Below are positions 3,114 to 55,760 of a DNA stretch of 64,000 nucleotides, in pieces. The position numbers and the translations under genes are program-made. Positions within the stretch are counted from its first letter, which is position 1. Every line of letters starts with the position of its first letter. Under the pieces are notes generated by a model. That model was not told the origin of the DNA and ran no database searches. It saw nothing but the letters and a program-made list of their open reading frames with translations. Source of the stretch: a virus (Duplodnaviria > Caudoviricetes). The stretch spans positions 1 through 64,000 of the IMG/VR virus record IMGVR_UViG_645058824_000001; one strand, 5' to 3'.

Positions 3114-3118
3114 ACACG

Positions 3119-3148
3119 CGAGCGCCCGGCCGTCAGACCGGGCGCTCG
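3119..3148. terminator. hairpin terminator
   Basis: CGAGCGCCCGG/CCGGGCGCTCG 11-bp stem. Confidence 0.65.
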
Positions 3149-3984: not shown

Positions 3985-4089
3985 GCCCCGGTGATATCGG
4001 CACCCGACCCCGCCGCAGGCCCGGACCGCGGGCACGTCACCCGAGTGCGGGCAATCCTCACACCGACACGCCAGCTCAGCCGATCACGG

Positions 4090-12201: not shown

Positions 12202-12205
12202 GGCA

Positions 12206-26424: not shown

Positions 26425-27201
26425 TCAGGGGCGGTCGGGCGCGGTGTAGGCGGCCCTGCCCTCGGACTCCCACCAGCGGCGGAACGCGTTGACGGCGTGC
26501 TTGCCGCCGTGGCCTCGCGTGGTCCGCAGCCAGTCGTCATAAAGCTGTTCGGCGACGCCGATGAACGGCTCGTCGTGCGTGAACGCAGGCCACGCCTGGC
26601 ACCCGCAGTGATCGTGGTACCGGTTGCCGCCCTGCCGTGGATCGCCTGCGGTCTTCGCCGACTTGTACACCGGCCCCCGCGAGGCGAGCATCGCGCACCA
26701 CGCGCACGGGTCCGCGTCCGTGACCCGCGCCCAGCCGGCCGCCTGCTCGTCAGCCTCGATCGACCGCTGCATGACCTGCCGGCCACCCTCCAGCGCAAGG
26801 TACTGGGTGCTGCCGACCATGCGAACAGCGGCAGCATCCATGGCCTGCTGAGGCGTCTTACCCGCGGCAATGGCCTTCTTGAACTCGACCGGCCCCGTCA
26901 CATCGAGGGCACGTTCCAGACGGTGGACGAACAGCGGCAACGGATCCTCTGGAGTGAAGTCGCCGTCATCGATACCCGCGTCGCGGCGGGCATCCATGTA
27001 CGCGGAGCGGGCCAGGACAGCCGACTGCTCCCGAGCCTCCTGCACCACGGGCTTGAGAGCCGCCTGCACAGCCGGCCACGACGCGTCAACCTTCGCCGGG
27101 TTCATCAACTCCCGCCAGATCTGCAGCACCTGCCGGGCCAGGCGCGCAGCAGCGAGAGCCTGCACACGCCGGTATCGCTGCGGCGCCTCCGGGCCCGCCA
27201 T
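26425..27201 (-). CDS. MuF-like minor head / maturation protein
   Basis: GWARV...PCAWCAMLASRG...YHDHCGC. Confidence 0.78.
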   Translation of the reverse strand: MAGPEAPQRYRRVQALAAARLARQVLQIWRELMNPAKVDASWPAVQAALKPVVQEAREQSAVLARSAYMDARRDAGIDDGDFTPEDPLPLFVHRLERALDVTGPVEFKKAIAAGKTPQQAMDAAAVRMVGSTQYLALEGGRQVMQRSIEADEQAAGWARVTDADPCAWCAMLASRGPVYKSAKTAGDPRQGGNRYHDHCGCQAWPAFTHDEPFIGVAEQLYDDWLRTTRGHGGKHAVNAFRRWWESEGRAAYTAPDRP

Positions 27202-35831: not shown

Positions 35832-37379
35832 TCAGAAACGTCTGATCAGGCGAAGGCTGGTGGCATACAGGCCGGTCCCGTCGAGGGCGGACGACCCGCC
35901 GAGATCGCCGAACGTCGGCCCGTTCGGCGTCTTCCTGCTGTTGATGAAGCGTGGGTGGCCGGCCTGGTCGACGCCGAGGTAGATCCCGTTGTGGTCCAAC
36001 TGCCCGGCCACCGGGTCGGATGTGTCGGCGTCGAAGTGCGGCACGTCCCCGATCTGCATCGCCGCCATCGACGGCACACTCCCAGTGGCCTGGGCGACGA
36101 TGATTCCCGGACCGTTCGGCCCGATGTTCTTCGTCTGCCGGGGCAGGTTGAGGCCGTCGAAGTTCGCATCACGCACCATGGGAATGCCCATGTGGAAGCC
36201 GTAGATCATGCGGACGAAGCCGCTGCAGTCCAGGCTGCGGAGCTCGCTCGCCTTCGCCGCCTGCGTCTCCCCGTTCGGAAAGACCCAGTCGACGCCGATG
36301 TAGTCGTGAAAGTCGGCGCCCTCAATCCGGGTCCCGTCCACGTCGTCCGGCCCGTACAGCGACTCCCCCGCCACCTGCCGACCAGCCAGAGCCGGACTCG
36401 TCACAGCCGGGGCACCGGTGATGTACATCATCGCGTAAGCCAGCACGTCGGGACTGGAGTCGACCGCCCACCGGCGGATCTGATCCGCCAGCGCCGGAGT
36501 CCACGTGCCGTCGAACGGCTGAGCAAGGACCCGCACCCACGTGTTGTGCGTGATGACCGGCGGGTCCGGCCACGTACCGGAGTACAGCTGAATGTCGTGC
36601 ACCCGGAAGTTGAACGGGACAGAGGTGTTGCCGGTGGCGGCGATACCGCGGACGCCGATCCGGCCGGCGCCGAGGGTGGCGTCGACCACCTCGTGCACCC
36701 ATGTGGTCGGCTCCGCGGTGCCGTCCTTCCACGCACGGGTGCGGATCGTCGTCCCCGTGCGCTGGGCGCGGATGTGCCAGACGTCGCCGACCGCGTAGCC
36801 GGTGCCAAGCTGGACGGCCGCGCCGGGCGTGGTGGTGCCGCTGTCGGTCTGGCACTCCAGGACGAGCTGCACGGCGCCGCTGGTGAGAACGGACAGACGG
36901 GCCCGGTACTGGCTTGTCGAGGACGTGTATGCGAACGACAGGGCGAGGCTGACCGCGTTGCCGGTGGGCATCTTGTCCAGCGACCACGACAGGCGCGCGT
37001 CCAGGTCGGTGATGTTGTCCTGCACTGAGGTGTGCCGGGATGCGTTCACCGCCGTCATGTTGATGATGCCCGCGCTGCCCGACACCGAATAGTTGGCGTC
37101 GACGCCGTTGGAGTTGGACCAGGTGCCGCCCGCGGGCGAGACACCCCAGCCGTTGCTCGTGATTCGGTCGAAGCCGTCGACGAACGGCCGCTTCTGCTCC
37201 GTGAACGTCCGCTGCGGCCCCCGCATCGTGACGGTGCGCGCCCCGACCGTCAGCGTCGCCAGGACGCCCTGCGTGTCGGAGACTTGCAGCCGGTTCGGCC
37301 CGGTGAGGGCCTGGGTGGTGAGCGTGGCGGGCGGCGGCTGGTACAGCATCAGCCCGTCATCGACGGTGAGGACCGCCAT
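35832..37379 (-). CDS. lectin-like domain + C-terminal NlpC/P60 peptidase
   Basis: Beta-sandwich (FVDGFDR...WHIRAQRTGTTIRTRAWKDG.EP..W); LDCSGFV...GDVPHF...DHNGIYLG. Confidence 0.8.
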   Translation of the reverse strand: MAVLTVDDGLMLYQPPPATLTTQALTGPNRLQVSDTQGVLATLTVGARTVTMRGPQRTFTEQKRPFVDGFDRITSNGWGVSPAGGTWSNSNGVDANYSVSGSAGIINMTAVNASRHTSVQDNITDLDARLSWSLDKMPTGNAVSLALSFAYTSSTSQYRARLSVLTSGAVQLVLECQTDSGTTTPGAAVQLGTGYAVGDVWHIRAQRTGTTIRTRAWKDGTAEPTTWVHEVVDATLGAGRIGVRGIAATGNTSVPFNFRVHDIQLYSGTWPDPPVITHNTWVRVLAQPFDGTWTPALADQIRRWAVDSSPDVLAYAMMYITGAPAVTSPALAGRQVAGESLYGPDDVDGTRIEGADFHDYIGVDWVFPNGETQAAKASELRSLDCSGFVRMIYGFHMGIPMVRDANFDGLNLPRQTKNIGPNGPGIIVAQATGSVPSMAAMQIGDVPHFDADTSDPVAGQLDHNGIYLGVDQAGHPRFINSRKTPNGPTFGDLGGSSALDGTGLYATSLRLIRRF

Positions 37380-38179
37380 CACGCCCCCTGGAAGTCGACC
37401 TGGATCGTGACCGCTGTCGGCGCCCCGGTGACGGAGCGGATCGCGACGGTGAGGCTGTCTCCCGCGGCGAAGCTGGCGTTCTGCACGGACGGCCCCGACA
37501 GCCACGTCGACGCGGTGGAGAGGCTCAGGTTCGTGGCGAGGAGATCGGACGCGTTCCGTTGCGCGTTGATCGTCGCCCCGGTACCGCCAACCCGATACCC
37601 GCGCACCCCGACCACCGTGCAGGCTTTCGGAGCCCGCCACACGACGTAGGAGACCGCACCCGCCGGCGCGGTGATGACCAGGCTCTTGCTCAGCGTCGTC
37701 GCTGCGGCCGGCAGGGTCAGGCTCGGAGCCGTCACCCCACCATCGGCCGCGACCGCGAATGTACCGGGCCCGTTGATCGGCCCGGTGACCGTGCCGCCTG
37801 CCTTCGGGAAGAACTTCCCGTCCGCGTAGGCACGGTCTCCGTGCGGGTCCGTGGCCTGCGCGTGAGCGGTGACCTTCGCGGTGGCGTCGGCTTCAGCGGC
37901 GGCCCGATCACCGTGCGGGTCCGACGCGACGACGTGCGCCTGCAGCGCCTCCTCGGCATGTGCCCGATCCCCGTGCGGATCCTGCGCGGCGACATGCTCG
38001 TCGACCACGGCCTGGGCTGCGGCCTGGACTCCGTCGATCGTCGCCAGGCCGGACACGTCGCCGGTCTTCCCGTTCACGGAGGACACGAGGCCGGCGGACA
38101 CGTGCACCGTCCGGGCCTGCTGCCCTGTCGTCACCTCGATCTCGTCGGTGAGCGCCTCACCCGTGACTTGGAGCCTCAC
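37379..38179 (-). CDS. fibre-like protein with three HxxxxDPHGDRA repeats
   Basis: VSSVNGKTGDV motif, DPHGDRA x3, beta-rich C-terminal domain. Confidence 0.7.
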   Translation of the reverse strand: MRLQVTGEALTDEIEVTTGQQARTVHVSAGLVSSVNGKTGDVSGLATIDGVQAAAQAVVDEHVAAQDPHGDRAHAEEALQAHVVASDPHGDRAAAEADATAKVTAHAQATDPHGDRAYADGKFFPKAGGTVTGPINGPGTFAVAADGGVTAPSLTLPAAATTLSKSLVITAPAGAVSYVVWRAPKACTVVGVRGYRVGGTGATINAQRNASDLLATNLSLSTASTWLSGPSVQNASFAAGDSLTVAIRSVTGAPTAVTIQVDFQGA

Positions 38180-39291
38180 CGGGTCACCTCCAGCGAGACG
38201 ACCGCCCGCCCCTGCAGCAGCCGCACCACCGTACCGGCCTTGACGACCTCAAGATCCCACACGCCGTTCCGGGTGAGGGTCTCGGTGACGGACGCCGGGA
38301 TGGCGAGGCGGATCGTGTCCCCGATGACCGTCAGATAGTCACCCAGGTCGAGAAGGAGATCGCCGTGCTCGGAGGCGGGCGCGGACCGGATCTGCGCCCG
38401 CACCGACCAGCCGTCCCACGTGAAACCCGACACGTCAGCGACACGATAGTTCTGCACGAACGTGGCGCCCTGCTCCAAGTGCAGATCGAGATGCCCTGCG
38501 GCCAACCCTGCCACCTCCGGAATCTCCGAGCTTGCCGCGTCCGCAGCGAGTGCTGCTTGCCCGGCGAGGGAGGCCGCGGCGTGCGCGGCCAGGGTGGGCG
38601 AGGCAACCAGGACGGTGTCCGCGGTGAGTGCGGCGGTAGCGTGCGCGGCCACCACAGCGGACACCGTCATCGCGGTCTCCGCAGTCAGGGCGGCATTCGC
38701 GTCGTGCACGGCCCCATCGGCGAGCGTGTTCACGTTGTCGTAGGCCGCGTAGTCCTCGACCCCGGCATCCCGGTACGCCCACAGGTCGAGGGCCGTGTCG
38801 TCGATGCTCGCCGCGATCCATGCCGGGGAGGCGAGCGTGCGCCGGTTCGTCCACGTGGTGCCGTCGGGGCTGGTGTCCCAGTAGACGTTGGTCCCGTCTT
38901 CCCGCAACCGCAGCCACAGGTGAGCGACCGGGTCGTAGGGGATCTCGACCGCGGCAGGGTCCCAGTAGTCGACGTTCGACATCATGCGCAGCATGCCGGT
39001 GACCGCGTTGTACTCGAAACCGAGGTTCGTGCCCGGCGTCGCACAGATGATCAGGAAATCGCAGGTGACGTTCGTACCGGTCGACGCGGCGGGGACTTTG
39101 GCCAACTTCAGGTAGACGGTGGCACCGGCGAACGTCCACGCCCGGCCCGTCTGATAGCCCGCGTACAGGCCCACCTTGCAAGGGACGCGGGCTTCGCCGC
39201 CTGCCTCGTGGGCGCCCTCGTAGCTGTTACCCCACTCGGGGCCTATCTCCGAGTCGTTGAAGTTATCGACCAGATCCGAGAGGGAGGGCAT
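38176..39291 (-). CDS. lectin-like N-domain + Ala-rich linker + BppU-like C-domain structural protein
   Basis: LVDNFND, HLWLRLREDG.NVYWDTSPDG.TW; LHLEQGATF...VWDLEV. Confidence 0.65.
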   Translation of the reverse strand: MPSLSDLVDNFNDSEIGPEWGNSYEGAHEAGGEARVPCKVGLYAGYQTGRAWTFAGATVYLKLAKVPAASTGTNVTCDFLIICATPGTNLGFEYNAVTGMLRMMSNVDYWDPAAVEIPYDPVAHLWLRLREDGTNVYWDTSPDGTTWTNRRTLASPAWIAASIDDTALDLWAYRDAGVEDYAAYDNVNTLADGAVHDANAALTAETAMTVSAVVAAHATAALTADTVLVASPTLAAHAAASLAGQAALAADAASSEIPEVAGLAAGHLDLHLEQGATFVQNYRVADVSGFTWDGWSVRAQIRSAPASEHGDLLLDLGDYLTVIGDTIRLAIPASVTETLTRNGVWDLEVVKAGTVVRLLQGRAVVSLEVTR

Positions 39292-43828: not shown

Positions 43829-43844
43829 TGGGGCCTCCTCGGTT

Positions 43845-43923
43845 CGTGTATATGCACCGTACCCTCTGGTGCATATACACGGCAAGCTCTACGATGGAAC
43901 TCATGCATATACATCCCTACGAT
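43845..43923. promoter_or_regulatory. divergent promoter/operator region
   Basis: 14-bp perfect IR CGTGTATATGCACC-N9-GGTGCATATACACG plus a third TGCATATACA; TACGAT-N6-ATG. Confidence 0.7.
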
Positions 43924-43929
43924 GAGCCC

Positions 43930-44178
43930 ATGGCCAAGCAGAACACTGAGCGGCACACCCCACTCCGGCCGCTACGGATCCCCGACGACGAGTGGGAAGC
44001 CCTCGGGAAAGCAGTCGGCGAACGCAACCGCACCCGCCTCCTGCGCGAGTACATCCGCTGGCACCTCCGCTGGCCCGGCAACACCCAGCCCACCCGTGCA
44101 CCCGAACAGATCGGCGGCCCCGGTATCAGCAAAAAGACGACAGAGCAGGCCAACGATCAGGAGGAGCAGGATGGATGA
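43930..44178 (+). CDS. ribbon-helix-helix regulator (leaderless)
   Basis: PLRPLRIPDDEWEALGKAVGERNRTRLLREYIRWHL. Confidence 0.72.
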   Translation: MAKQNTERHTPLRPLRIPDDEWEALGKAVGERNRTRLLREYIRWHLRWPGNTQPTRAPEQIGGPGISKKTTEQANDQEEQDG

Positions 44179-44548
44179 CCTGGTGCGATGGCTGGACGAA
44201 CAGCTCACCGAGGACGAGCGGATCGTGCGGGCGGCGACGCCTGGACCGTGGGTGGCGAACAAACACGAGTACGGCGCTGAGGTTTACACCGAGGGTGGCG
44301 AAGGTGTGGCCCTCGACCACGACGCTGGCGGAGTCGGCTGGGACGACGCGGACTTCATCGCGGAGCATGATCCGACGCGGGCGCTGCGCGAGATCGACGC
44401 CAAACGGCGGCTGCTGGAGTGGCTAGAGCAGAAGAATCAGTGGGCGCTCGATAACAACCTGTGGTCCTGGGACGACGAGGAAGCGCTGCGCTTGCTGGCT
44501 CTGCCCTACGCGGCCCGGCCCGGCTACAAGGAGTCGTGGCGCCCGTAG
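44171..44548 (+). CDS. DUF6221-family protein
   Basis: DDLVRWL...FIAEHDP.R.LREIDAKRRLL...LRLLALPYA.RPGYKESWRP. Confidence 0.8.
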   Translation: MDDLVRWLDEQLTEDERIVRAATPGPWVANKHEYGAEVYTEGGEGVALDHDAGGVGWDDADFIAEHDPTRALREIDAKRRLLEWLEQKNQWALDNNLWSWDDEEALRLLALPYAARPGYKESWRP

Positions 44549-44640
44549 CCCACCACTCGAAGCGCCCTGCTGGATGACTCTGGTGGGGCGCTTCGCCGAT
44601 TCCGCCCCTACTCCCCCACCAGCCGCGTCACACTGCCGTT

Positions 44641-44835
44641 ATGGCGATCCGGGCGAGTATCCAGGCGGACACCGAGGACGAGTGCGTCGAGGGCCTGACC
44701 CAGCTGGTCGATGCGGGCTTCGTGCCGGTGATGATGCCCCGGTACATGACGGACGGCCGCTGGATGGCCCGCGCCGTACCCACACGGAAAGCACCGACCG
44801 CGGAAAGCGGCCGGGGCGCTGTTGCTGCTGGTTGA
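44641..44835 (+). CDS. hypothetical protein, leaderless
   Basis: CACACT-N6-ATG. Confidence 0.55.
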   Translation: MAIRASIQADTEDECVEGLTQLVDAGFVPVMMPRYMTDGRWMARAVPTRKAPTAESGRGAVAAG

Positions 44836-45303: not shown

Positions 45304-45513
45304 TTAGCGGCTGGTCTGGTCGCCGTAGACGTTCTCGGCGTAGTCACCGGCGTGGTAGTCGCCCGCGATGTGGTCGCCGCCGACGGAGATGTTCGTGGTG
45401 GTCTGGCTGCCGTACCGGGTGCCGGTGTTGATGTTCTGGCGGGTGGCGTCGACGGCACCGTTGACGATCTCGTCGGTGACCTGCTGCGCGAGCTGCTTGG
45501 GGCTGAGTCCCAT
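45304..45513 (-). CDS. hypothetical protein
   Basis: GGAGG RBS; GDHIAGDYHAGDY mini-repeats. Confidence 0.6.
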   Translation of the reverse strand: MGLSPKQLAQQVTDEIVNGAVDATRQNINTGTRYGSQTTTNISVGGDHIAGDYHAGDYAENVYGDQTSR

Positions 45514-45622
45514 GGTTTCCTCCAGGTGGGTTCGGGTTGGTGGTTCTACTGTCTCGGGGCTGTGAGTTGGTGTCGGCTCTGAGAGTGCAGACGGGGCGTG
45601 ACGGGCGTCACTCCCGGCTAGT

Positions 45623-45871
45623 TCAGGCGGCGGTGACGGTCAGGTCATGCCCGGCATGGGCGAGCGCGTCTTCGAGTGCGGCCTGCGCGCCCGACTCCTC
45701 CCACGCCGCGGCCACATCCGACCGGGCGAACACCAGCCGCAGCACGCCGTCCCGCTCCTGGACGACGGCGTGGTCGAGGAGCATGGCGGTCACCATGCGG
45801 CGGCGACGCGTCCCCGCCAACACCTCCGGCCACCACACGGGCGCCGTCTTGCTGCAGGTCATCGACTCCAT
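45623..45871 (-). CDS. hypothetical protein
   Basis: GAGGGAG RBS. Confidence 0.55.
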   Translation of the reverse strand: MESMTCSKTAPVWWPEVLAGTRRRRMVTAMLLDHAVVQERDGVLRLVFARSDVAAAWEESGAQAALEDALAHAGHDLTVTAA

Positions 45872-45882
45872 CAGGGTCTCCC

Positions 45883-46335
45883 TCACTTCCGGTTGATGGT
45901 CTTGGCCCACACGCTGCGGTTCTCGGTGTTGCGCTGGTCCTGGTAGACGGGGCCCGCGTAGTGGTGGTGGTGCTCCTCGGGCAGTGCCGCCTTGGCCTTC
46001 CCCGCGAGCCGGGCGAGGGCGAGGACCAGGGCGGTCGGCGCGCCGAACACGATGGCGCAGACGACGGGGTTGGCGAACTGGGAGTAGTACATGACGACGG
46101 CCGCAGTACCGCCGACCATCGCGGTGCTGGCTCCCCCGGCCAGCATGAGCACGCTGGCGTCGGTCGCACCCTGGCTCATCGGCGGCCGGCCGGGCTGCGG
46201 AACGGGCGGAGCGGATCCGACAACGGGAATCGGGCTGTCGTCTCTGAAGCTGGTGGGCTGGTAGGCGGCGTGGATGAGGCGGGCGGCTTCCTTCTCGGCA
46301 ACCTCCTCGCTCATCGGCATGGCAGGCTCGGTCAT
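45883..46335 (-). CDS. two-TM Pro-rich membrane protein (spread/transfer-associated type)
   Basis: Two hydrophobic segments, HHHHYAGPV tail; downstream of traB/clt. Confidence 0.65.
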   Translation of the reverse strand: MTEPAMPMSEEVAEKEAARLIHAAYQPTSFRDDSPIPVVGSAPPVPQPGRPPMSQGATDASVLMLAGGASTAMVGGTAAVVMYYSQFANPVVCAIVFGAPTALVLALARLAGKAKAALPEEHHHHYAGPVYQDQRNTENRSVWAKTINRK

Positions 46336-46344
46336 GCGGGTCTC

Positions 46345-46962
46345 CTAGTCGATTTCGCCGGTGCCGGAGCACACGGAGCAGCGGACGGTCGTGGTGTCGT
46401 GCAGGCGGGACTCGATGACGTGGGCGCCCTCGCCGCGGCAGGCCGGGCACGGGTTGATCGGCTCGGGGGTGTAGTCGGGGTCGGGTTCGTAGCCGCCGGT
46501 TTGTGCGGTCCAGGCGGCCTCGAGCGCCCCGGCCTTCGCGGCGGCGACACCGCGGCGCGCGGCCTGCTTGACCGGCTGGGTGACGGCGCGAACGGCCCGC
46601 CGCCGCTGCCTCCGCAGCGCCGGCTTGACCAGGCGCCGCCAGTAGACGCGGACCGCGGCCTTCACGTCCTCCGGCGTCACCTCCGGGTACAGCTCCCCGG
46701 CGAGGACCGCACCACCGATGGTGATCTCGAACAAGTCGGCATCCTCCGGCCGTTGACGGCCCGTCGACGCCTCCTTGATCCGCTTCAGGTCGCCGACGGT
46801 GATGAGCGGGTCTTCCCAGCTGTGGGACTGCCAGCAGTTGCCGTGTACCGGCATGGCGTCGATGAAGCTGCCGCCGTCGAGGGTGAACGCCTCCGACAGG
46901 CACTCGGGGCAGACGTAGGGAGCGCCGTCGATCGTCATCTGCTGGATTTTCAGGGTGAGCAT
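46345..46962 (-). CDS. zinc-finger protein (CxxC; C-terminal CxxCxGxG repeats)
   Basis: CPEC; CPACRGEG; CSVCSGTG. Confidence 0.65.
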   Translation of the reverse strand: MLTLKIQQMTIDGAPYVCPECLSEAFTLDGGSFIDAMPVHGNCWQSHSWEDPLITVGDLKRIKEASTGRQRPEDADLFEITIGGAVLAGELYPEVTPEDVKAAVRVYWRRLVKPALRRQRRRAVRAVTQPVKQAARRGVAAAKAGALEAAWTAQTGGYEPDPDYTPEPINPCPACRGEGAHVIESRLHDTTTVRCSVCSGTGEID

Positions 46963-46995
46963 TCGAACCTCCTCTCTCTGATCGTTCAGGGGCAC

Positions 46996-47170
46996 GGACC
47001 CTGCCCGGACCCTGTCTTCGGCTGTCGTTTGTGCAGGTCAGACCCTGCGCGGACCCTGCCCGGCATGACGTCGGCGGTGGCGGACCCTGCCCCGCCCAGG
47101 CAGGGTCGGGGCAGGGTCGTCAGCGCCGTGACCTGCATGTCTTCCAACGGGGGCAGGGTCGGGGCAGGGT
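46996..47170. repeat. clt-like locus: GACCCTG repeats arranged as a large palindrome
   Basis: Forward copies at 46997, 47008, 47041, 47052, 47083; reverse at 47101, 47112, 47154 (+47165 partial); directly 3' of traB. Confidence 0.75.
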
Positions 47171-47182
47171 GTAAACCTGGAT

Positions 47183-49279
47183 CTATCGGGCGGCGGTGAG
47201 ATCGGCGAGCCGGAACCCGCGAGCTTCCTTACCCTCCGCCGTCGCGACCTTCACCGCCTTGATGTCGAGGCCCTCAGCCGCCATCGAAGCGGCCAGGAGC
47301 TTCCCCACCCGCGCGCTGTACTGCGCATCGGTCTCATCGACCCGGTAGCCGTACCGCTCGTCGACCGTCGCGAGGTACGCGAACACCTCGGCCCGCGTCG
47401 CCTCTCCCCTGCCGGTGGCCTCGGCGGCGTCGATCAGGTGGTCCAGCAGGGTCAGGACGGCCGGAGTCGACCCGATGCGCCCCTTGCCGCTCTCGCCGCC
47501 GGCCGCCGAGGAAACGCCGGTCTCGGCGAGCAGGTACTCCTCGATCGGGTCCTTCCACTGGCCGGGGAGCCGACCGGCGGCCTTGCGGATCTCGTAGGCC
47601 TCTTCTGCCGCCCGCCGCTTGTCGTCGGGCTTGACCAGGTAAGAGCGGACCTGGATGACGCCGGTCTCCGGGGTAGACAGCCAGGCCCGGCCCGGCTGGG
47701 TCAGCGGGATCTTCGAGGCGTCGTGGCCCTGACCGGTCATGCCGTCGCCAAGAATGGTGTTCGAGGCAGTGCCCGACTCGGTGTTCATGGCGGCGCGGGA
47801 GGTGTGGTTCTGGCGGAGCCGGCCGCGGACGACGTCGACCTCGGGCACCTGGGTGAGGCTGATCAGGGTGATGCCGAGGGCGGCGCCGACGGCGGCGATC
47901 TGCGACAGGTTCTCGGTGATCTCGTCGGCGTAGGGGCTGGTGCCCTTCGGGGTGTAGGTGGCCAGCTCGTCGACGATGAAGACCTCACGGCCGCCGAGCA
48001 GCTGCATGCACTCCTCGTAGTTCTCGTCGTCGATCTTCTCGTAGCCGTGCTCGTCGAGCAGGTCGGAGCGGCGGTCCATCTCGGCGACGATCGCACGGGT
48101 GGCAAGGGCCAGCCGCTGGGCGTTGCGCTTGGTGAACGTGCCCATGATCCGCGCATAGGCGTTGTGCTCGGCGGTGCCCTTGCCGTCGAAGATCCGCACG
48201 TTGACCCACGGGTCCTTCGCCACGCCGATCAGGATGTTCGCCAGCAGCATGCCCTTACCGCGGCGGGTGGCGCCGCCCACGATGAGGCTGCTGTCCCGGA
48301 TCCACAGGGTGATGGGCTCGCCGCGCTTACCGAACGCGACCTTGATGCCATCGCGGAAGGTGTTGATCGGCCCTTCGTGGTCGAGGAGCGGGGAGCGCCG
48401 CACGATGGCGAAGGGGTCGCTGCTGGCCACCCATACCTTCAGCCGGGACTCAATGTCGCCGACTTCCAGGTCGAGCCAGTCCTGGTGGACGGCGAGCGCG
48501 GACGCGATCTGCTGCTTCCTGGCCACCGCGACTGCGGCGGGAATCCCGGACGGCAGGTCGACTTCGTAGGCGATGCCTGGGCCTTCGGTGTGGGGGATGC
48601 CGACGCCGCGGATCTCGGCGGCCCGCTTCTCGGGGACGGCTCCGGCTTCGACGAGGACCCGGCGCATGGTGTCTTCGCCAAGGTGGCTGGTGCGGGTCGG
48701 CGCCTGGATCGGGACGACCGCGGGTTCCTCGGGCCGGCCGAACCATGCGCCGGTGAAGACGAACGCGAGGGCGAGGAGGATCTGCACCCACAGTCCGCCG
48801 ACCGCGGCGGCGATCGTGCCGCCGCCGACGATGATCAGACCGCTGATGCCGGTGCGGATCCAGTGCCGCTTCTTGTGCGCCTTGAACTCGGCGCGGCGGA
48901 CCTGGAGCACGGCACGGGCTCGCGCCTCGTCGGCCGGCTTGCCCTTGGCGGCCCGGAGCATCTGCTTGGCGGACGCGATCTCCTGCCGGTAGTCGTCGTG
49001 CCGGGCTTCCCACCAGCGGAGGCAGAGGCGGCGGTAGCCGCGCACGGACCAGCCGAGGTAGTACGGCGTGTGCGTGACCTGGTACACGGTCCAGTCGATC
49101 GCGTTGTCGCGGGCGTACACGACCCACTGCCGCAGCTGCTCGCCGGAGAGCATCCAGCCGGGGCGGGGGCGCTTCTCGAACTCGTAGACGCGGGCCGGCT
49201 CGGGGTCCTTGGTGAGCGTGGCGGTGATCTGCTCCCACTCCGGATCCGGGGTGCTGCTGGGGGTCGTCTCGATGCTCAC
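47183..49279 (-). CDS. traB: TraB-type FtsK/SpoIIIE conjugative DNA translocase
   Basis: N-terminal TMs, Walker A GGATRRGKG, Walker B IVDE, GITLISLTQ, C-terminal wHTH-like region. Confidence 0.88.
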   Translation of the reverse strand: MSIETTPSSTPDPEWEQITATLTKDPEPARVYEFEKRPRPGWMLSGEQLRQWVVYARDNAIDWTVYQVTHTPYYLGWSVRGYRRLCLRWWEARHDDYRQEIASAKQMLRAAKGKPADEARARAVLQVRRAEFKAHKKRHWIRTGISGLIIVGGGTIAAAVGGLWVQILLALAFVFTGAWFGRPEEPAVVPIQAPTRTSHLGEDTMRRVLVEAGAVPEKRAAEIRGVGIPHTEGPGIAYEVDLPSGIPAAVAVARKQQIASALAVHQDWLDLEVGDIESRLKVWVASSDPFAIVRRSPLLDHEGPINTFRDGIKVAFGKRGEPITLWIRDSSLIVGGATRRGKGMLLANILIGVAKDPWVNVRIFDGKGTAEHNAYARIMGTFTKRNAQRLALATRAIVAEMDRRSDLLDEHGYEKIDDENYEECMQLLGGREVFIVDELATYTPKGTSPYADEITENLSQIAAVGAALGITLISLTQVPEVDVVRGRLRQNHTSRAAMNTESGTASNTILGDGMTGQGHDASKIPLTQPGRAWLSTPETGVIQVRSYLVKPDDKRRAAEEAYEIRKAAGRLPGQWKDPIEEYLLAETGVSSAAGGESGKGRIGSTPAVLTLLDHLIDAAEATGRGEATRAEVFAYLATVDERYGYRVDETDAQYSARVGKLLAASMAAEGLDIKAVKVATAEGKEARGFRLADLTAAR

Positions 49280-49297
49280 TGCGAGTCCTTCGGAGGG

Positions 49298-50449
49298 TCA
49301 GTGGTGGTGGCCGTTGGCGGTCGTGATCTTGCGGGCGGTGTCGGCGGCAGCGAGGCCGGCCAGCGGGTGGTACTTCACGGTTCCGGGGCGGCGCTTCGGC
49401 GGCGTCCCGCCATTGCTGCGGCGACCGTCTTCGCCCTCCTTCCGGGCGACCTTCTGAGGGGTCTTTGCGGGCTTCCCGACGGTGGGGGGCATTTGGGAAT
49501 CCACCTGCGAAGATCCAGGCCCGGAGATGAGCACTGAGGGGGCCGGGTGGAGCATCTGGAGGAGGCGCCCGCGAGTGCTTATCGGGGACCCGTTCGCGTC
49601 GTCCATCGCGGCGGCGAGGGCCTGCCGGGAGGCGAGCTGCTGGGCGTGCATGGCCGGGGTCATGCCGGGGGTGCTGGTGCCGTAGAAGATCTCCCACGCG
49701 GCGGCGAACGCTTCCTCGAACTTGAGCGTCCCGAACGGTGCGGCGGACACCAGACGCTTCGCCAGCTTCACGACGTCCTTGTGGTCCCGGTACCGCTTCC
49801 GGTTGTGCTTCGCGCGGGCTTTCTCATCGGCTCGCTTCTTCGAGTCGCCCGTGGACGCGGACAGCGTGAGGACCCACTGCCGGACCTCGAAGAAGAGAGG
49901 GCCGAGCATCGTCACCGCGGCGAGCCCGATCCCGGCGGCGGTCGCGTTGGTCTCGCTGACCCCGTGCTCGGTCAGGCTGAGCCCGTACTTGTAGTTGATG
50001 TTGGCGGCGAACCCGGCGGCGGAAAGCGACAGGCCGCGCAGGAGCCAGCGCACCCAGGCGGGCAGCTTCTTCTCGTCGGCGTAGGCGACGCCGGCTGCCA
50101 TCACCCAGGCTGCGCCCTCGACGGCGGGGCCGACCGGGAACAGCATCCAGTGGATGGCGAAGAAGTGCAGGATCTGCGCGGGCAGGGAGGCGAGCGCGGA
50201 CAGGGCGACCAGGATCAGGGTGCCCTTGCGGTACACGTTGCCGGGGGTGAGGGTCTTCTCGCGGCGAGCGGCGCGGGCCTGGCGCCGGGCGGTCTTGTCG
50301 CGCCGCGCCTGCGCTTTGACCTCGCGGTCCTCCTCGCGGTCCTTGCGGCGTTCCTCGCGACGCAGCTCGGCGTCGAACGCCTTGTTCTTCCGGCGCTCCT
50401 CGGCCTCAGCGGCCAGGTTGCGCCGACGCTCATCGTGCCAACTGGCCAC
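49298..50449 (-). CDS. transfer-associated membrane protein (DUF2637-like)
   Basis: Charged coiled coil + about 4 TMs (PVGPAVEGAAW, FAANINY); directly upstream of traB. Confidence 0.7.
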   Translation of the reverse strand: MASWHDERRRNLAAEAEERRKNKAFDAELRREERRKDREEDREVKAQARRDKTARRQARAARREKTLTPGNVYRKGTLILVALSALASLPAQILHFFAIHWMLFPVGPAVEGAAWVMAAGVAYADEKKLPAWVRWLLRGLSLSAAGFAANINYKYGLSLTEHGVSETNATAAGIGLAAVTMLGPLFFEVRQWVLTLSASTGDSKKRADEKARAKHNRKRYRDHKDVVKLAKRLVSAAPFGTLKFEEAFAAAWEIFYGTSTPGMTPAMHAQQLASRQALAAAMDDANGSPISTRGRLLQMLHPAPSVLISGPGSSQVDSQMPPTVGKPAKTPQKVARKEGEDGRRSNGGTPPKRRPGTVKYHPLAGLAAADTARKITTANGHHH

Positions 50450-50473
50450 GGCGATCGGTTTCCTCTCTCGGTT

Positions 50474-50662
50474 TCAGCTGGCGGTGACGCGGGCGCGTCG
50501 GTACAGGTGGACGTCTTCGCCCTGGCGGGCGGACGGGTGGGGGGTGAGGCCGTTGAACCGGTGCTCGCCAGGCCCGGTGGACTGCCAGGCGCGGCCCGGT
50601 CCGGGACCTCGGCTGTCGTCGGTGCGGCCGGCGCCGCCGACCTGCTCGTTACGCCAAGCCAT
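50474..50662 (-). CDS. hypothetical protein
   Basis: ATG overlaps the upstream stop. Confidence 0.5.
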   Translation of the reverse strand: MAWRNEQVGGAGRTDDSRGPGPGRAWQSTGPGEHRFNGLTPHPSARQGEDVHLYRRARVTAS

Positions 50663-50859
50663 CAGGCGACCTTGGCGGGCGTCGGCCGGTGCTTGAGCCA
50701 GGCGACGACGGCGGCGAGGAGGAGCACGGACGGCGGGATGGTCGCGATCACGGCGCCCAGCCCGGCGAGCGTCAACGTGACGGGGGCGAGGGCGGCCGGC
50801 CACAGGCCGACGGTCAGCAGGTACAGGGCGAGCAGCGCCCAGGCGGTGTAGCGGAGCAT
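50662..50859 (-). CDS. small hydrophobic Spd-like membrane protein
   Basis: Two TM segments in 65 aa within the tra block. Confidence 0.65.
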   Translation of the reverse strand: MLRYTAWALLALYLLTVGLWPAALAPVTLTLAGLGAVIATIPPSVLLLAAVVAWLKHRPTPAKVA

Positions 50860-50971
50860 GACGACCTCTCGGGGGTCGGGACGGATGGTGGGGGTGGTGG
50901 TGCTGGGCCGGTTCTCCTCACCGCCCGCACGGGGTCGGGCGGATCGGACAGCCGGTCAGCGGGTCAGCGGG

Positions 50972-51148
50972 TCAGCGGCCGAACAGTCCGCGCTTGCGGT
51001 CGCCGTAGAGGCCGCTGTCCGGGTTGGTGGTGTGGCTCTCGTGGACGCGGGCACCGCTGCTGGTCTTCACGGCCTTGTCGTCTTCGGTGGTGGCGTGGCC
51101 GCACGCCTGGCAGGGCTTGCCGGTCTCGTTCTTGCTGAACAGGCCCAT
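50972..51148 (-). CDS. small CxxC/His protein
   Basis: AGGAG RBS; CQACGH...HESH. Confidence 0.6.
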   Translation of the reverse strand: MGLFSKNETGKPCQACGHATTEDDKAVKTSSGARVHESHTTNPDSGLYGDRKRGLFGR

Positions 51149-51188
51149 GACGGGCTCCTCTCGGTTGGGTGGTCGGTCGGGCAATCGG

Positions 51189-51371
51189 TCAGCGGCGGCC
51201 GAAGCCCCAGCTGATCCACGCGCTGACCTCGTCGGTGCGGTCGGTGACGCGGCCGGACTCCAGCGCGTCGGCGCGGGCCTCCATCTCCTTGGCCTTCGTC
51301 TCCTGGCCTCGGTTGCGCAGCGTCCTCGCCGCCTCACGGTTCTTCGCGGCCTGCCTCTTCATGCGGTCCAT
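51189..51371 (-). CDS. hypothetical protein
   Basis: GGAAGG RBS. Confidence 0.6.
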   Translation of the reverse strand: MDRMKRQAAKNREAARTLRNRGQETKAKEMEARADALESGRVTDRTDEVSAWISWGFGRR

Positions 51372-51502
51372 GGGGGTCCTTCCGGATCAGGTGGATGGCT
51401 GGCGGTGCGTGCCCCGGCCTGCCTTTGCGGCTACGCCCGTGGTGGCCGGGCCGGGGCTGGTGCCGGGCGCGGCGGGGGTTCCCGCGCCCGGCAGTCGGGA
51501 GG

Positions 51503-51688
51503 TCAGGCGGTGCGTTCGACTACGAACCCGGTCCCGTTCGGGTGGGTGTGGCCACGGACTTCCTCCACCTGGGCGCCGTCGACGCTCTGCCAGAACTCGG
51601 CGTTGGTGGCCGTGATGATCGTGTTGCCGTTCGGAGTGATGACGCGGTGCGCGATCTCCTCACCGGTCTTGCTGTCGCGACGGAACAT
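51503..51688 (-). CDS. hypothetical protein
   Basis: GAGG RBS. Confidence 0.6.
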   Translation of the reverse strand: MFRRDSKTGEEIAHRVITPNGNTIITATNAEFWQSVDGAQVEEVRGHTHPNGTGFVVERTA

Positions 51689-51714
51689 GCGGTGTCCTCT
51701 CGGGCGGACGAAGG

Positions 51715-51984
51715 TCAGGCGGCGGCCGGGACGTCGTCGCGGGTGGCGAGCTCGACCCGCAAGCGAACGGCCTCCTGCCGCAGCGCCTCGTTCTCGGCGC
51801 GCAGCGTGTCCACGGAGCCCTGGAGACGCTCGGCGTGGTTGGCCATCGTCCGCAGCATCTCCACGAGCCGGACGATCAGCCGGACAGCAGTCCGGTGCGG
51901 CAGATCCGGGTCGGTGTAGTCGGCGTCGGCCGTGTCGTCGATGATCCGTCGCGCGTCACGCACGAACATGGCGGTCAGATCCAT
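51715..51984 (-). CDS. coiled-coil protein
   Basis: LQGSVDTLRAENEALRQEAVRL. Confidence 0.6.
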   Translation of the reverse strand: MDLTAMFVRDARRIIDDTADADYTDPDLPHRTAVRLIVRLVEMLRTMANHAERLQGSVDTLRAENEALRQEAVRLRVELATRDDVPAAA

Positions 51985-52022
51985 GAGAGTCCCTTCGGTG
52001 GTTGGTTGTTTGGGCAGCGAAG

Positions 52023-52253
52023 TCAGGCGGCGGCCGGCTCGTTGAAGCCGTCGAGCTCGGCCAGCAGCTCCGGGTCGGCGGCGAGACGGATCTCCGCGAC
52101 GCGGGCCCGGTCGCCGCGGGAGACGGCGGCGGCGTACTCGGCGAACAGGTCGGTGATCGACAGCACCTGGATCGCGGAGACGAGCGTCGCGGCGCGGTCC
52201 TCTCGGACGAGAACGGTGCGGGCGTGGTCGGCAGAGAACAGGTACGGAGACAT
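52023..52253 (-). CDS. hypothetical protein
   Basis: GC3 bias; typical small AICE-type ORF. Confidence 0.6.
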   Translation of the reverse strand: MSPYLFSADHARTVLVREDRAATLVSAIQVLSITDLFAEYAAAVSRGDRARVAEIRLAADPELLAELDGFNEPAAA

Positions 52254-52448
52254 GACAGGTGAGCCCTTCCGGGTCAGAGATCAGGTGGGTGGGGGGTGAT
52301 ACGAGGTTGGTGGCCGCGGGTGGCGGGCCGGAGGGGAGCCAGGAACGTCCGCCACCCGCGGCGGATCAGGGGGTCTAGCGGGGCCGGTTCTCGGACTGCT
52401 TGTTCTTCTCGCGCAGCTTCCGAAGCATCCGCTCGTAGTCCTCGGGGC

Positions 52449-52772
52449 TCACGACGCCACCCCCGTCGGATACGGGTGCGGGCCCCTCGGGCGACGAGGC
52501 AGCTCGTCCTTCGTTTTCTCGTGGGCGGCCACGAGGTGCAGGTGCCGGGCGGCCGGCTCGGGCCGGACGGTGACGAACGTCGTCCGCAGACGGGTGTTCG
52601 TCTCCGGGTCGATCACCGCGACCATCAGCCGCGGCGACTCCCCGCCGTCCCAGTCGCCCACCTGGGCGACGATCCGATCCGCCGTCTCCCGCACCGCCGT
52701 CAGACGGGCCAGGTCCGGGGTCGGCTCCGGCCGGCGCGGGCCACGCGTCGGCATCTCGTCGGAAGTCATCAC
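52449..52772 (-). CDS. hypothetical protein
   Basis: Overlaps the upstream stop. Confidence 0.5.
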   Translation of the reverse strand: MMTSDEMPTRGPRRPEPTPDLARLTAVRETADRIVAQVGDWDGGESPRLMVAVIDPETNTRLRTTFVTVRPEPAARHLHLVAAHEKTKDELPRRPRGPHPYPTGVAS

Positions 52773-52939
52773 TGGACCTCCCCGCGCATCACAGCCATGA
52801 GGAAGTCGTCCAGGACGATCGGGGCGACGTCGGAGCGGGTCGAGTCGTGGAGCTCCAGTCGACCGCCGCTGTCGAGTGCCTCGCGGATGGCCTCGCCGTT
52901 CGGGGCGGCCATGTCGATACGGGTCGGCTCGGTCATCAC
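52769..52939 (-). CDS. hypothetical protein (56 aa; not in the ORF track)
   Basis: GTG overlaps the upstream stop; MMTEPTRIDMAAPNGEAIREALDSGG... Confidence 0.5.
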   Translation of the reverse strand: MMTEPTRIDMAAPNGEAIREALDSGGRLELHDSTRSDVAPIVLDDFLMAVMRGEVQ

Positions 52940-53235
52940 GCCTCCCCGATGAGGTCGAGGCGACCGGCGGCGGCGAGCACCTCGCGGGCGGCGGCCATGA
53001 CGTCCTCCGCCGCGGCCAGCGAGTCCGCGTCGAGGTCGGTCATCTTGTCGGCCTCGGCGAGCGCGGCGAGCTGCACGGCCTTCACTGCGGCCGTCTCGTA
53101 CTGGGCGACCGCACGGACCAGCGGGAACTCGGCCTGCAGCCGGTCCAGCAGAGCGGCAGCATCGGCGGGAAGCGGGGCGGTGTCGCCCTCGCGGTCGGTG
53201 CGCTCCAGCGCACCGATAAGATCGGTGGTAGCCAA
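52936..53235 (-). CDS. hypothetical protein, first gene of the tra operon
   Basis: AGGAG RBS before the TTG. Confidence 0.6.
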   Translation of the reverse strand: MATTDLIGALERTDREGDTAPLPADAAALLDRLQAEFPLVRAVAQYETAAVKAVQLAALAEADKMTDLDADSLAAAEDVMAAAREVLAAAGRLDLIGEA

Positions 53236-53363
53236 CTTGGTCTCCTAGTCAGAACCTGTTGGTTAGGGCCGGGGCCTCGAGGTAGGAGTCGAGGACTTCC
53301 GGCCCGTCTTCATTTGTGCGCCGTCCGCGGACTGGGTCCGGTAGGAGTGGACAGCGGGACCGG

Positions 53364-53384
53364 CTTCAAGGTTGCGCCTTGAAG
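53364..53384. promoter_or_regulatory. candidate operator in the divergent tra/regulator gap
   Basis: CTTCAAGG-N5-CCTTGAAG perfect IR. Confidence 0.45.
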
Positions 53385-53490
53385 TGCGGTTGGTACGACC
53401 GTAGAGGGCCCGCCGAAGCGAGTCAAGCGGACAACTCAACTCTTCTAGTCGAGTCTTGAGCAGGCGTCGGATGGCCCGTACCCTCACGAC

Positions 53491-53745
53491 ATGGCCGACT
53501 CCCCCGACGCTCCTTTCACCCCCTACGACGAGCAGCTGCGCGCGATCCCAGACCTCAACGAGCGCTGGGCCGCCTACCTCGGTCTCGCGGAATTCCTCGA
53601 GACCGAACTGGAGCGTTGGCGGCGCCGGCAGCGGAAGGAGATCGCGCTGGGCTTCCGGGAGCAGGGGAAGACCTGGAAAGAGATCGGCGAAGCCATGGGG
53701 GGCGTCTCTTTGCAACGCGCCCACCAGTACAGCAAGGGCGAGTGA
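53491..53745 (+). CDS. HTH regulator (leaderless)
   Basis: GKTWKEIGEAMGGVSLQRAHQY; TACCCT-N6-ATG. Confidence 0.75.
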   Translation: MADSPDAPFTPYDEQLRAIPDLNERWAAYLGLAEFLETELERWRRRQRKEIALGFREQGKTWKEIGEAMGGVSLQRAHQYSKGE

Positions 53746-53888
53746 GTCCATGGGATCGAGTCTCCGCGCGCACGCCCACGCAGACCATGAAGATCCCGTG
53801 CAGCGCCATGCAGTGATCTGAAGCGGAATCTGCAGGCCCATGCAGACCCGCTACGACAGGGCCCACAAAGGCGGCCGAGGAGCCGATA

Positions 53889-54530
53889 GTGGACGACGTT
53901 CGACAGCAGTGGACCGGGCAGAAAGCCGCCTGGCTCCAGGACGCATTCGAAATGACACAGGAGCAGTTCGCGGGACGGCTCGGGGTGTCGGTGCGCAGCG
54001 TCGCAGCTTGGCGCGCCAACCCGACGATGGTGCCCCAGCCGGAAACGCAGCGGATCCTGGACACGGCCTACGGGAGGGCAGGTGATGCGGTGCGCCGCCG
54101 GTTCATCCACTTGTCGCGGATAGCTACGCCCCAGCCGGAGGCGCAGGCGCTGCGGGTGGCAATCGCTGTGGTCCGCCGCGGCGGTGACGTGCTCCTCGTG
54201 TGCAGGCAGGACGGCGACGACATCTCCTGGCAGTTCCCGGCCGGCATCGTGAAGCCGGGTGGGAGCGCGGCGAAGGTCGCGGTGCGGGAGACCCTGGACG
54301 AGACCGGCGTGCACTGCATGGTCCGCGAGCACCTGGGTGAACGGCTGCATCCTGTGACGCGCACCGTGTGCGACTACTTCGTCTGCGACTACGTGCACGG
54401 TGAGGCAGTCAACGGGGACTCCTCGGAGAACGTCGCCGTCGCCTGGGCTCCGATAGGGGAGCTTGCCCGCTACATCCCCACCGACCGCATCTACCCGCCG
54501 ATCCTGACCGCCTTGGAGGCGATCGTATGA
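53889..54530 (+). CDS. XRE-HTH-NUDIX fusion (degenerate Nudix box)
   Basis: [20 protein letters not shown]; [27 protein letters not shown]. Confidence 0.85.
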
Positions 54531-54931
54531 CCGAGACGACCAAGCCCGACGTGTCCGCCGCGATCATCACCGACGGGGAGCACGTCCTGATGGTGCGGCG
54601 CCGCGTGAAGGAGGGCGAGCTGTCGTGGCAGTTCCCGGCCGGCGGTGTCGAGGACGGCGAGACGGCGGAGGAGGCGGCGGTGCGGGAGACGCTCGAGGAG
54701 ACCGGCCTGACCGTGAAGGCCGTGCGCTACATCGGCGACCGGGTGCACCCGAAGAGCGGCAAGTTCATGGCGTACACGGCGTGCGAGGTCGTCTCGGGTA
54801 CGGCGACGGTGGCCGACGAGGAGGAGCTCGACCAGGTGGCGTGGGTGCGGCACGAGGAGATCCCCGGCCTGGTCCCCTACGGCCTGTTCGGTCCGGTGCA
54901 GGCCTACCTCGACGACGTCCTGCCGCACTGA
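54527..54931 (+). CDS. NUDIX hydrolase
   Basis: Intact box [23 protein letters not shown]. Confidence 0.92.
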
Positions 54932-55192
54932 AATCGGCCACTTGGATCATTTCCGGCCATCTTCAGGCGAGCCTTACTCCAGTCGGCGCGAAATGACGAC
55001 GCTCCTTAACGCGTACTTTTCGAAATTCCCAGTTCACCACTGCCGCAGGTGAGCAGGCCGAGGTGTCGACCTTCCCACTCAACTGAGTACGCGCTCCGTT
55101 CCCCCATATGGGTGACGACATAAGAAAGTCGCAGGTGAAATGAGGTGCAGCGGCCCTCGGGAGCCTGCTCTAGAGTCTTCTCCAGAACGACG

Positions 55193-55251
55193 AACGGCCG
55201 AGCGGTTCGCACCCGCCCGGCCGTTTCAACCAGCGAGTTCGCACCTCGCTG
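55193..55251 (+). ncRNA. twin hairpins with an identical TTCGCAC loop (putative leader RNA)
   Basis: 13-bp stem (1 mismatch) and perfect 7-bp stem, same 7-nt loop, about 40 nt before the 55290 ATG. Confidence 0.4.
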
Positions 55252-55289
55252 ATCAATCAACCCGCTCCTAGCAGAGAGAAGGTTTCGTC

Positions 55290-55760
55290 ATGACTGTATC
55301 GCAGGGGTGCGTTACCCCTCAGCGCGAGATGCCGGCCCCACGCTCCTGGTCGTTCGTCGACCGTCGCACCGGTGAGCGCGTGCAGTACACCTGTATGGAC
55401 GGCTGCACGATCGACCACTCCCGCGAGATGGGACGCGCGATCTTCCGCGAGGACGTGTGGTGCTGGTTCTGGGACCGGCCGTTGACGCTGCCGGTCAACA
55501 CGAGTGGCGAGCCTGAGACGTTCCAGGTCCTCAATACGGTCATCAAGGTCGAGCCGTGGTCGTCGAAGTTCGCTGAGCGGCTGCCCTATGCGGTGATCGA
55601 GCTGCTGGACGACCACTTCATCGAGGGCCTGGATCCGGACGGCCTGGAGACCGTCATCAACACGCTCGCGGCCCGGGTCGAGGGGATGCGGGCCACGCAC
55701 CGCCGTCTGGTCGAGGTGCGTGAGGAGTACCGGGCGCGAAGGCGCAGCGCGACCGGCTGA
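55290..55760 (+). CDS. DUF6907-like protein
   Basis: CMDGCTIDH...EDVWC; GAAGG RBS. Confidence 0.65.
   Translation: MTVSQGCVTPQREMPAPRSWSFVDRRTGERVQYTCMDGCTIDHSREMGRAIFREDVWCWFWDRPLTLPVNTSGEPETFQVLNTVIKVEPWSSKFAERLPYAVIELLDDHFIEGLDPDGLETVINTLAARVEGMRATHRRLVEVREEYRARRRSATG

Follow-up and report, generated by a model that had tools for sequence, protein, structure and literature searches.

A Streptomyces siphophage carries a plasmid-type TraB/clt-like cassette, a putative second route of DNA transfer

The DNA analysed here is the window formed by the first 64 kb of the 82,137-bp IMG/VR record IMGVR_UViG_645058824_000001 (record G000), which the database classes as a provirus and to which CheckV assigns a completeness of 100%. 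On this one molecule a full siphovirus gene set is accompanied by a plasmid-type transfer cassette, made up of a gene for an SpdB2-like protein, a traB gene whose product is homologous to TraB of the conjugative Streptomyces plasmid pSG5, and an array of 8-bp repeats that resembles a clt locus; across related loci the repeated word changes together with the C-terminus of TraB. We put at about 0.55 the probability that the block at ~45.9–55.8 kb is a working plasmid-type cassette for the translocation of double-stranded DNA which belongs to the phage, a reading that draws on sequence comparisons and structural models. The preliminary description of this stretch, which had interpreted it as a phage with a conjugation module, is partly supported.

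The transfer cassette is internal to the phage

The G+C content of the DNA is ~70%, nearly all of its genes lie on the minus strand (gene calling based on GC content at third codon positions, GC3), and the nearest relatives of its proteins are from Streptomyces, some strains of which have a TraB 87–92% identical to the present one. Scans with PHROG and Pfam show a siphovirus gene set that is complete within the window (PHROG matches from 3e-73 to 1e-154), including the head, tail and lysis genes that had been reported on the same molecule as the transfer genes. Beyond the window the record contains genes for a DNA methyltransferase, a DnaB-type helicase, a DnaC-like loader, a replication initiator, a RecE-like exonuclease and a sliding clamp, and a truncated gene of the XRE-type helix-turn-helix (HTH) kind stands at its right end. 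With terminase, portal, capsid, tape measure, tail, lysin and replication genes plus a repressor-like HTH gene, the record has the make-up of a tailed temperate phage. It does not have that of a phage-plasmid of the pZL12 type, as it is classed as a provirus and as neither ParB_N nor the ParA-type family AAA_31 gave a match in the 82 kb.

The cassette is placed between the phage replication genes and the packaging and virion genes, and the genes on its traB side are on the same minus strand. Flanked upstream by the replication genes and downstream by those for terminase, portal, capsid, tail and lysin, the cassette is therefore part of the phage genome itself. It had been described as standing in line with the phage middle genes; with regard to the upstream phage genes this is not simply so, as the cassette begins at a divergent region of its own (53236–53490). 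An actinomycete integrative and conjugative element (AICE) excising independently of the phage had been named among the findings that would overturn the phage interpretation. Family searches across 43–56 kb found no integrase, excisionase or plasmid-type replication gene (RepSA, RepAM, Prim-Pol), and no direct repeats were found flanking the tra block, which is without int, rep or att of its own.

The comparison set consists of 11 further IMG/VR phage records (G001–G011), retrieved by a scan for this TraB (38–88% identity), and of three loci on Streptomyces chromosomes obtained by a pattern scan of species genomes. In a sample of 300 genomes of the genus there were at least one close and at least nine distant TraB matches, a tally which is a lower bound because just three candidates were scored per genome. 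In all 11 records and in the three chromosomes the cassette is again found between replication and virion genes, even though the virion module of the present phage is common to 3 of the 11 records only and at least two different structural modules occur among the relatives. Record G001, for example, differs in terminase, portal, capsid and tape measure. It is an 85,278-bp contig whose ends overlap by 127 bp, and it carries terL, portal, capsid, tape measure, integrase and traB/clt; it is therefore one closed molecule in which virion genes, an integrase and traB/clt are united. The coexistence of virion genes and a plasmid- or AICE-type transfer module on one molecule, as put forward in the preliminary description, is thus seen in a position that is held in 11 related records.

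These observations bear on whether the phage and the transfer block could be separate neighbouring elements, or sequences joined by mis-assembly. The provirus was indeed cut out computationally, and an open reading frame is interrupted at either end of the record (window positions 1–264 and record positions 81715–82137). However, the DnaB, loader, initiator, RecE-like and clamp genes are separated from the virion genes by the block, neither within it nor beside it is there an int, rep or att, and identical synteny is found in independent assemblies, among them the contig with overlapping ends. Mis-assembly, also listed beforehand as a possible refutation, is unlikely because the relatives show the same arrangement, and we consider an artefact of either kind to be barely credible.

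Plasmid transfer proteins homologous to TraB and the SpdB2-like protein

The presence of a TraB on the phage molecule is confirmed by a Pfam FtsK_SpoIIIE match above cut-off and by a BLASTP alignment with pSG5 TraB that covers the membrane helices and the entire motor (30% identity over 452 residues, E 6e-33). In agreement, the AlphaFold model of the protein (predicted local distance difference test score, pLDDT, 87) matches the FtsK motor structure 6t8b in Foldseek with an E-value of 8.6e-16. Hydrophobic helices at residues 145–181 align with the corresponding segment of pSG5 TraB, as expected for a predicted N-terminal membrane anchor. The Walker motifs had been called intact. This stands for Walker B (VDE), but Walker A reads GATRRGKG (residues 335–342; 48254–48277), in which the invariant lysine is followed by a glycine where serine or threonine is usual. 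The GKG form is kept throughout the clade, in 12 of 12 phage copies and in ~25 diverse representatives, whereas pSG5 TraB and more distant relatives carry GKS or GKT. As a side observation, a Walker A of the GKG type marks a large clade of TraB-like proteins from phages and plasmids alike.

Selection on the motor is strongly purifying: the ratio of nonsynonymous to synonymous substitution rates (dN/dS) is 0.08–0.24 for the motor, and 0.08–0.14 for the C-terminus when compared within a class of repeat word.

The protein encoded directly upstream of traB is homologous to the product of the pSG5 open reading frame at 4087–5301, which lies just upstream of pSG5 traB (31% identity over 161 residues, E 5e-17), and is 59–62% identical to proteins of small Streptomyces plasmids; it was detected in 9 of the 11 relatives. 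Its plasmid homology, charged N-terminus, hydrophobic segments and position are those of an SpdB2 protein. The earlier label of DUF2637-like gene had to be given up, as the Pfam family DUF2637 does not match the protein even at E≤1; residues 178–310 do give tblastn matches to plasmid genes annotated as DUF2637.

Outside the phage clade, the closest relatives of TraB are found on Streptomyces plasmids (30–43% identity), with which the portal gene is not shared. Indeed, the 23-kb Streptomyces plasmid CP075612.1 (locus L055) has the set spdB2, traB, repeats, and genes for 150- and 222-residue proteins, next to ParA, Prim-Pol and recombinase genes, so that the cassette is common to plasmids and phages. 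This kinship, the shared gene set and the non-canonical Walker A would also suit a passenger or relic, that is, a piece captured from a plasmid or AICE which has no function for the phage. We find such an origin without function improbable, since the position of the block is constant across 11 phage records and three chromosomes with different virion modules, all of its genes are intact, loss-of-function alleles are not seen to be common among the relatives, and the strong purifying selection has dN/dS values that are not near 1.

The repeat array and the C-terminus of TraB change together

A clt-like repeat locus had been noted, and nine copies of GACCCTGC are indeed found within 175 bp directly 3′ of traB, seven exact and two with one mismatch. 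They are arranged as four dyads (11-bp spacing), of which two are inverted relative to the other two. Exact copies number 12 in the 64-kb window, against a chance expectation of 5.1 from shuffled sequence; seven of these are in the array and one is inside traB, at 47446. The layout is constant in 15 loci: counted from the traB stop, the dyads lie near +1/12, +45/56, +100/111 and +144/155. Contrary to the layout, the word itself varies and falls into six mutually exclusive classes, namely GACCCTGC, GTYGGACA, GGTCTGMC, CCCTGACA, ATCACGSS and GGGTGGAC; words of classes other than that of the window include GTCGGACA, GGTCTGCC, CCCTGACA and ATCACGG.

A second element does not follow these classes. 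Inside the array stands an invariant inverted pair, GCAGGTCA and TGACCTGC (47037–47044 and 47130–47137), which across loci takes the form CGCAGGTC/ACCTGCA and keeps fixed positions whatever the 8-mer class (the window, L003–L011 and L055–L059). The pair is also present in plasmid CP075612, and half of it in pSG5. It may be a second binding site that is independent of class.

The 8-mer class tracks the ~95 C-terminal residues of TraB and not the motor. Within the 15 loci, seven pairs have a motor identity of at least 85%; the word differs in five of them, and in these five the C-terminal identity is only 21–69%. With windows taken from a multiple alignment (motor, residues 200–590; C-terminus, residues 605–698), three pairs with different 8-mer classes illustrate the effect: G000 and G011 are 95% identical in the motor and 18% in the C-terminus, G009 and G004 93% and 37%, and G003 and G010 94% and 68%. 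A pairwise recount with slightly different windows gave 93/21, 93/35 and 94/67%, respectively. Since the class follows the C-terminus on a conserved motor, the repeats and the presumed DNA-reading domain have been swapped jointly and repeatedly, which is the pattern that would be expected of a working protein–site pair. Such co-exchange makes sense only if binding is selected, and therefore argues against the cassette being a passenger or relic.

Structural modelling is compatible with a reading role for this region. The last 99 residues of TraB, modelled alone, give a fold (pLDDT 90) with the order helix-strand-helix-helix-strand-strand, and the best structural neighbours of the model are all winged-helix DNA-binding domains, although with middling scores (Z 5.6, Foldseek E 0.047), none of the Foldseek hits being significant. 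On these weak matches, residues ~610–698 may form a winged-helix-like domain. In plasmids, clt regions carry 8-bp repeats that are recognised by the cognate TraB (Thoma et al. 2015, PMC4447253). A text search for the recognition word of pSVH1 returned nothing relevant.

Instead of transfer, an FtsK-like pump could serve segregation or dimer resolution, either together with the phage recombinase, taken as Xer-like, and a dif/lox-like site, or by clearing or partitioning the DNA of the phage as septa close and spores are formed. In reverse complement the repeat reads GGGCAGGG, which fits the Escherichia coli consensus, GGGNAGGG, of the FtsK-orienting polar sequences (KOPS). KOPS is an 8-bp word read by the winged-helix-type domain at the C-terminus of FtsK. 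The record does have a tyrosine recombinase, the sole recombinase found by family searches of the whole 82 kb, in which no serine recombinase was detected. However, this recombinase is not co-conserved with traB, giving one weak match among the 11 relatives, and FtsK-Xer coupling was set aside on this ground. Furthermore, the 8-mers of the relatives are unrelated to KOPS, the repeats occur in a single array instead of being spread and polarised along the genome, and the record has no ParA or ParB match. A role in segregation or resolution is very improbable.

Proposed function

From these data we infer how the cassette would work. TraB would be anchored in the membrane through its N-terminal helices, and its C-terminal winged-helix-like domain would bind the 8-bp clt repeats downstream of its own gene, thereby recognising the phage DNA. 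The phage genome, excised, double-stranded and replicating, would then be pumped by the FtsK-type hexameric motor through the envelope of the hypha and into an adjacent one, while the SpdB2-like protein and small membrane proteins would assist the passage of DNA across septal cross-walls. The divergent HTH and NUDIX genes could act as a control and immunity unit, in the manner of kil/kor and Pif. Under this mechanism the phage would behave as an AICE able to make virions. A wider proposal, to which we give slightly less than even odds, is that an integrating Streptomyces siphophage lineage consists of AICEs with capsids, whose genomes travel in virions and also, capsid-free, as double-stranded DNA that TraB pumps through hyphal walls and cross-walls, and that the joint exchange of reading domain and word defines private specificity classes, keeping co-resident plasmids and phages from hijacking the pumps.

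The most substantial alternative is that the cassette moves phage DNA across the septal cross-walls of one infected or lysogenic mycelium, without mating, so that one event reaches many compartments. The same cassette anatomy fits this equally well, an SpdB2 homologue does lie directly upstream of traB, and a role within the mycelium was already suggested for SpdB2 homologues on some actinophages (Thoma et al. 2015, PMC4447253). On the other hand, in plasmids the same TraB/clt pair takes DNA from donor to recipient (PMC4447253), and pZL12 is reported to transfer conjugally (PMC3583192). We regard spread confined to one mycelium as unlikely, though considerably less so than the alternatives discussed above.

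Several points weigh against a working transfer cassette of the phage. The ATPase activity of TraB is not assured, because its Walker A is without the usual serine or threonine after the lysine, and the assignment of the winged-helix domain rests on middling scores (Z 5.6 and Foldseek E of at least 0.047). HTH and NUDIX regulators stand beside traB in just 3–4 of the 11 relatives. No isolated actinophage in INPHARED carries this TraB or the SpdB2-like protein, which leaves no cultured Streptomyces phage to hand as a model. The phage-plasmid pZL12 is a precedent by analogy, because the two Tra proteins have no detectable pairwise similarity. Finally, the integrase that is expected by synteny is absent from the record: in the closed relative G001 it lies between homologues of the two end genes of G000, where G000 has none. 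When the left 9 kb were compared with the remainder of the record for candidate attachment sites, no direct repeat exceeded 17 bp, and no tRNA genes were found. Judging from the synteny, the true prophage ends and the integrase are probably outside the record.

Layout of the cassette, small genes and regulators

The positions of the features are collected in Table 1. Two conserved genes follow the clt-like array. The first encodes the zinc-motif protein, which has a DnaJ-type CxxCxGxG at its C-terminus and, close to its N-terminus, a CxxC pair; translation in fact begins at the ATG at position 46962, which is preceded by a GGAGG site. It is kept in 10 of the 11 relatives and is 31% identical to the product of the CP075612 open reading frame at 2540–3208. 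The second encodes the 150-residue protein, present in 10 of the 11 relatives as well, which is 55% identical to pZL12.70c (E 5e-48) and 45% identical to the product of the CP075612 open reading frame at 2084–2536.

Table 1. Features of the transfer cassette and of the phage modules in the window
Feature	Position	Strand	Properties and evidence
Endolysin	9126–10220		PHROG
Tail proteins	11107–14434		PHROG
Tape measure	14445–19250		PHROG
Major capsid	24707–25654		PHROG
Portal	27201–28604		PHROG
Large terminase	28624–30273	-	PHROG
Tyrosine recombinase	4941–6134	-	phrog_1 5.3e-29; Pfam Phage_integrase 8.9e-15
150-residue protein	45883–46335	-	one hydrophobic helix; phrog_19266 1.1e-44
Zinc-motif protein	46345–46962	-	~205 aa, starts MLTLKIQQM; weak Pfam DnaJ_CXXCXGXG 1.3e-4
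clt-like repeat array	46997–47171		in the 190-bp gap directly 3′ of traB
traB	47183–49279	-	698 aa; Pfam FtsK_SpoIIIE 1.9e-7, phrog_1358 3.6e-41
SpdB2-like protein	49298–50449	-	383 aa; charged coiled-coil N-terminus, hydrophobic core, C-terminal domain
65-residue protein	50662–50859	-	strongly hydrophobic (hydropathy scan)
Eight small open reading frames	50972–53235	-	49–107 aa; head of cassette operon (GC3 gene calls)
Divergent intergenic region	53236–53490		gene map and sequence
Small HTH protein	53491–53745	+	weak Pfam HTH_23 5.7e-3
XRE-type HTH fused to NUDIX hydrolase domain	53889–54530	+	Pfam NUDIX 1.6e-15; HTH_31/HTH_3 weak
NUDIX hydrolase	54527–54931	+	Pfam NUDIX 8e-26
DUF6907 protein	55290–55760	+	last of the plus-strand group; Pfam DUF6907 9.6e-17

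Several small membrane genes had been announced. One of them, encoding the 65-residue protein, is clearly hydrophobic; it has no family match and is a candidate Spd-like small membrane protein. The other small open reading frames between 50.6 and 53.2 kb are not clearly hydrophobic; those at the head of the operon are poorly conserved among the relatives, and family searches with them gave no significant match. A tandem 8-bp repeat, GGTCAGCG, is present in about four copies at 50946–50987, with a related copy 225 bp away (51177–51195). These repeats lie between the small open reading frames, upstream of the 65-residue membrane gene and of spdB2, and could be an operator for a regulator of the cassette.

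The divergent HTH and NUDIX regulators of the preliminary description are all in place, as plus-strand genes for an HTH protein, an HTH-NUDIX fusion and a NUDIX hydrolase; a DUF6907 gene follows on the same strand. The region between these and the cassette is likely to hold the promoter and operator of the cassette and its regulators, a role suggested by its position; a scan for promoters and terminators was uninformative in this GC-rich DNA. Homologues of the HTH-NUDIX fusion adjoin traB in G003, G007 and G008. The separate NUDIX hydrolase is 25% identical to pZL12.76c (E 1e-10) and, purely by analogy, might be Pif-like. A NUDIX protein is encoded by most AICEs, for which a regulator of the XRE or GntR type is typical too (PMC2440964).

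Three further observations concern the neighbourhood of the cassette and the left end of the record. In a region of ~1 kb without a confident gene call (43829–44835), two 14-bp arms (43845–43858 and 43868–43881) form a perfect inverted repeat around an AT-rich core. Upstream of the terminase are three large minus-strand genes (35832–39291), one of which encodes a protein of 602 residues with a weak match to NlpC/P60 peptidoglycan hydrolases; hydrolysis of the wall could be of use to the virion or to DNA transfer. Near the left end, a 232-residue protein (3337–4035, minus strand) has a GmrSD_C restriction-endonuclease domain (Pfam 2.3e-10) and is probably the product of a prophage-borne defence gene.

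Implications

If the cassette works, phages of this kind would reach hyphae that offer no usable receptor or that lie behind cross-walls, and the boundary between phage and conjugative element would be blurred in a multicellular bacterium. This bears on the spread of prophages among soil Streptomyces, and of the chromosomal DNA they may mobilise, on the way in which a phage infection travels through a mycelium, and on the classification of mobile elements. In addition, six predicted DNA-binding domains, each with an 8-bp word to match and all on nearly identical motors, make a ready system for the analysis of DNA reading by FtsK-type proteins.

Comparison with known systems

The closest parallel is the tra-spd region of pSG5 and pSVH1, in which the order is the same, with spdB2, traB and a repeat array right after the traB stop. 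With pSG5 the homology extends through the whole TraB motor and to the protein in the SpdB2 position, and pSG5 also has forward-then-inverted dyads after traB (with a CCCGGAC-type word) together with an ACCTGC element; the region after traB in CP075612 has dyads of the same kind. The differences are nevertheless substantial. pSG5 is a 12-kb plasmid and its TraB has a Walker A of the GKS form, whereas the present cassette has GKG and belongs to a phage of 82 kb that encodes all of its virion genes. Unlike pSG5 and pSVH1, the phage has no GntR-type TraR but XRE-type HTH and NUDIX genes, and it has the two extra conserved genes after clt.

Regarding the life style, AICEs such as pSAM2, SLP1 and pMEA300 are comparable in that they integrate, excise, replicate and transfer double-stranded DNA with one FtsK-like protein, and in that they have an XRE- or GntR-type regulator and a NUDIX hydrolase (PMC2440964). 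However, AICEs span 9–24 kb and are without virion genes, while this phage has phage-type replication genes (DnaB, loader, initiator) and encodes a complete siphovirus particle. FtsK with KOPS, and SpoIIIE with its recognition sequences (SRS), have in common with TraB the motor fold and a C-terminal domain of the winged-helix type, here predicted, that reads an 8-bp word; in those systems the words are polarised along the chromosome, and here they are clustered in one array beside the gene. Unlike FtsK and SpoIIIE, TraB is a protein of a mobile element and its word changes with the element.

The plasmid-phage pZL12 forms particles and transfers conjugally by means of a major FtsK-like tra gene and adjacent genes, according to Zhong et al. 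2010 (J Bacteriol 192:3747) as cited in PMC3583192 and PMC4487206. In the record of phage ZL12 (GQ919031) the FtsK-like gene 71c and its neighbours are just upstream of the virion genes and on the same strand. The two elements are thus alike in being tailed phages with tra genes upstream of the virion genes, in having a NUDIX gene nearby (76c in pZL12), and in the 150-residue protein, whose homologue 70c sits just downstream of the pZL12 tra gene. They differ in that pZL12 is an extrachromosomal plasmid with ParAB, whereas the present record is a provirus without ParA or ParB. Pairwise comparison detected no similarity between pZL12 Tra (71c) and this TraB and no significant similarity between the pZL12 membrane protein 73c and the SpdB2-like protein, and the tra gene of pZL12 is not followed by a dyad array. 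Double-stranded DNA conjugation in Streptomyces and phage-plasmids are mentioned in a review of plasmid mobility from 2025; conjugative phages are not. We would class the present element as one of a kind already known from pZL12, what is new being an integrating prophage lineage with an spdB2-traB-clt cassette of the pSG5/pSVH1 type.

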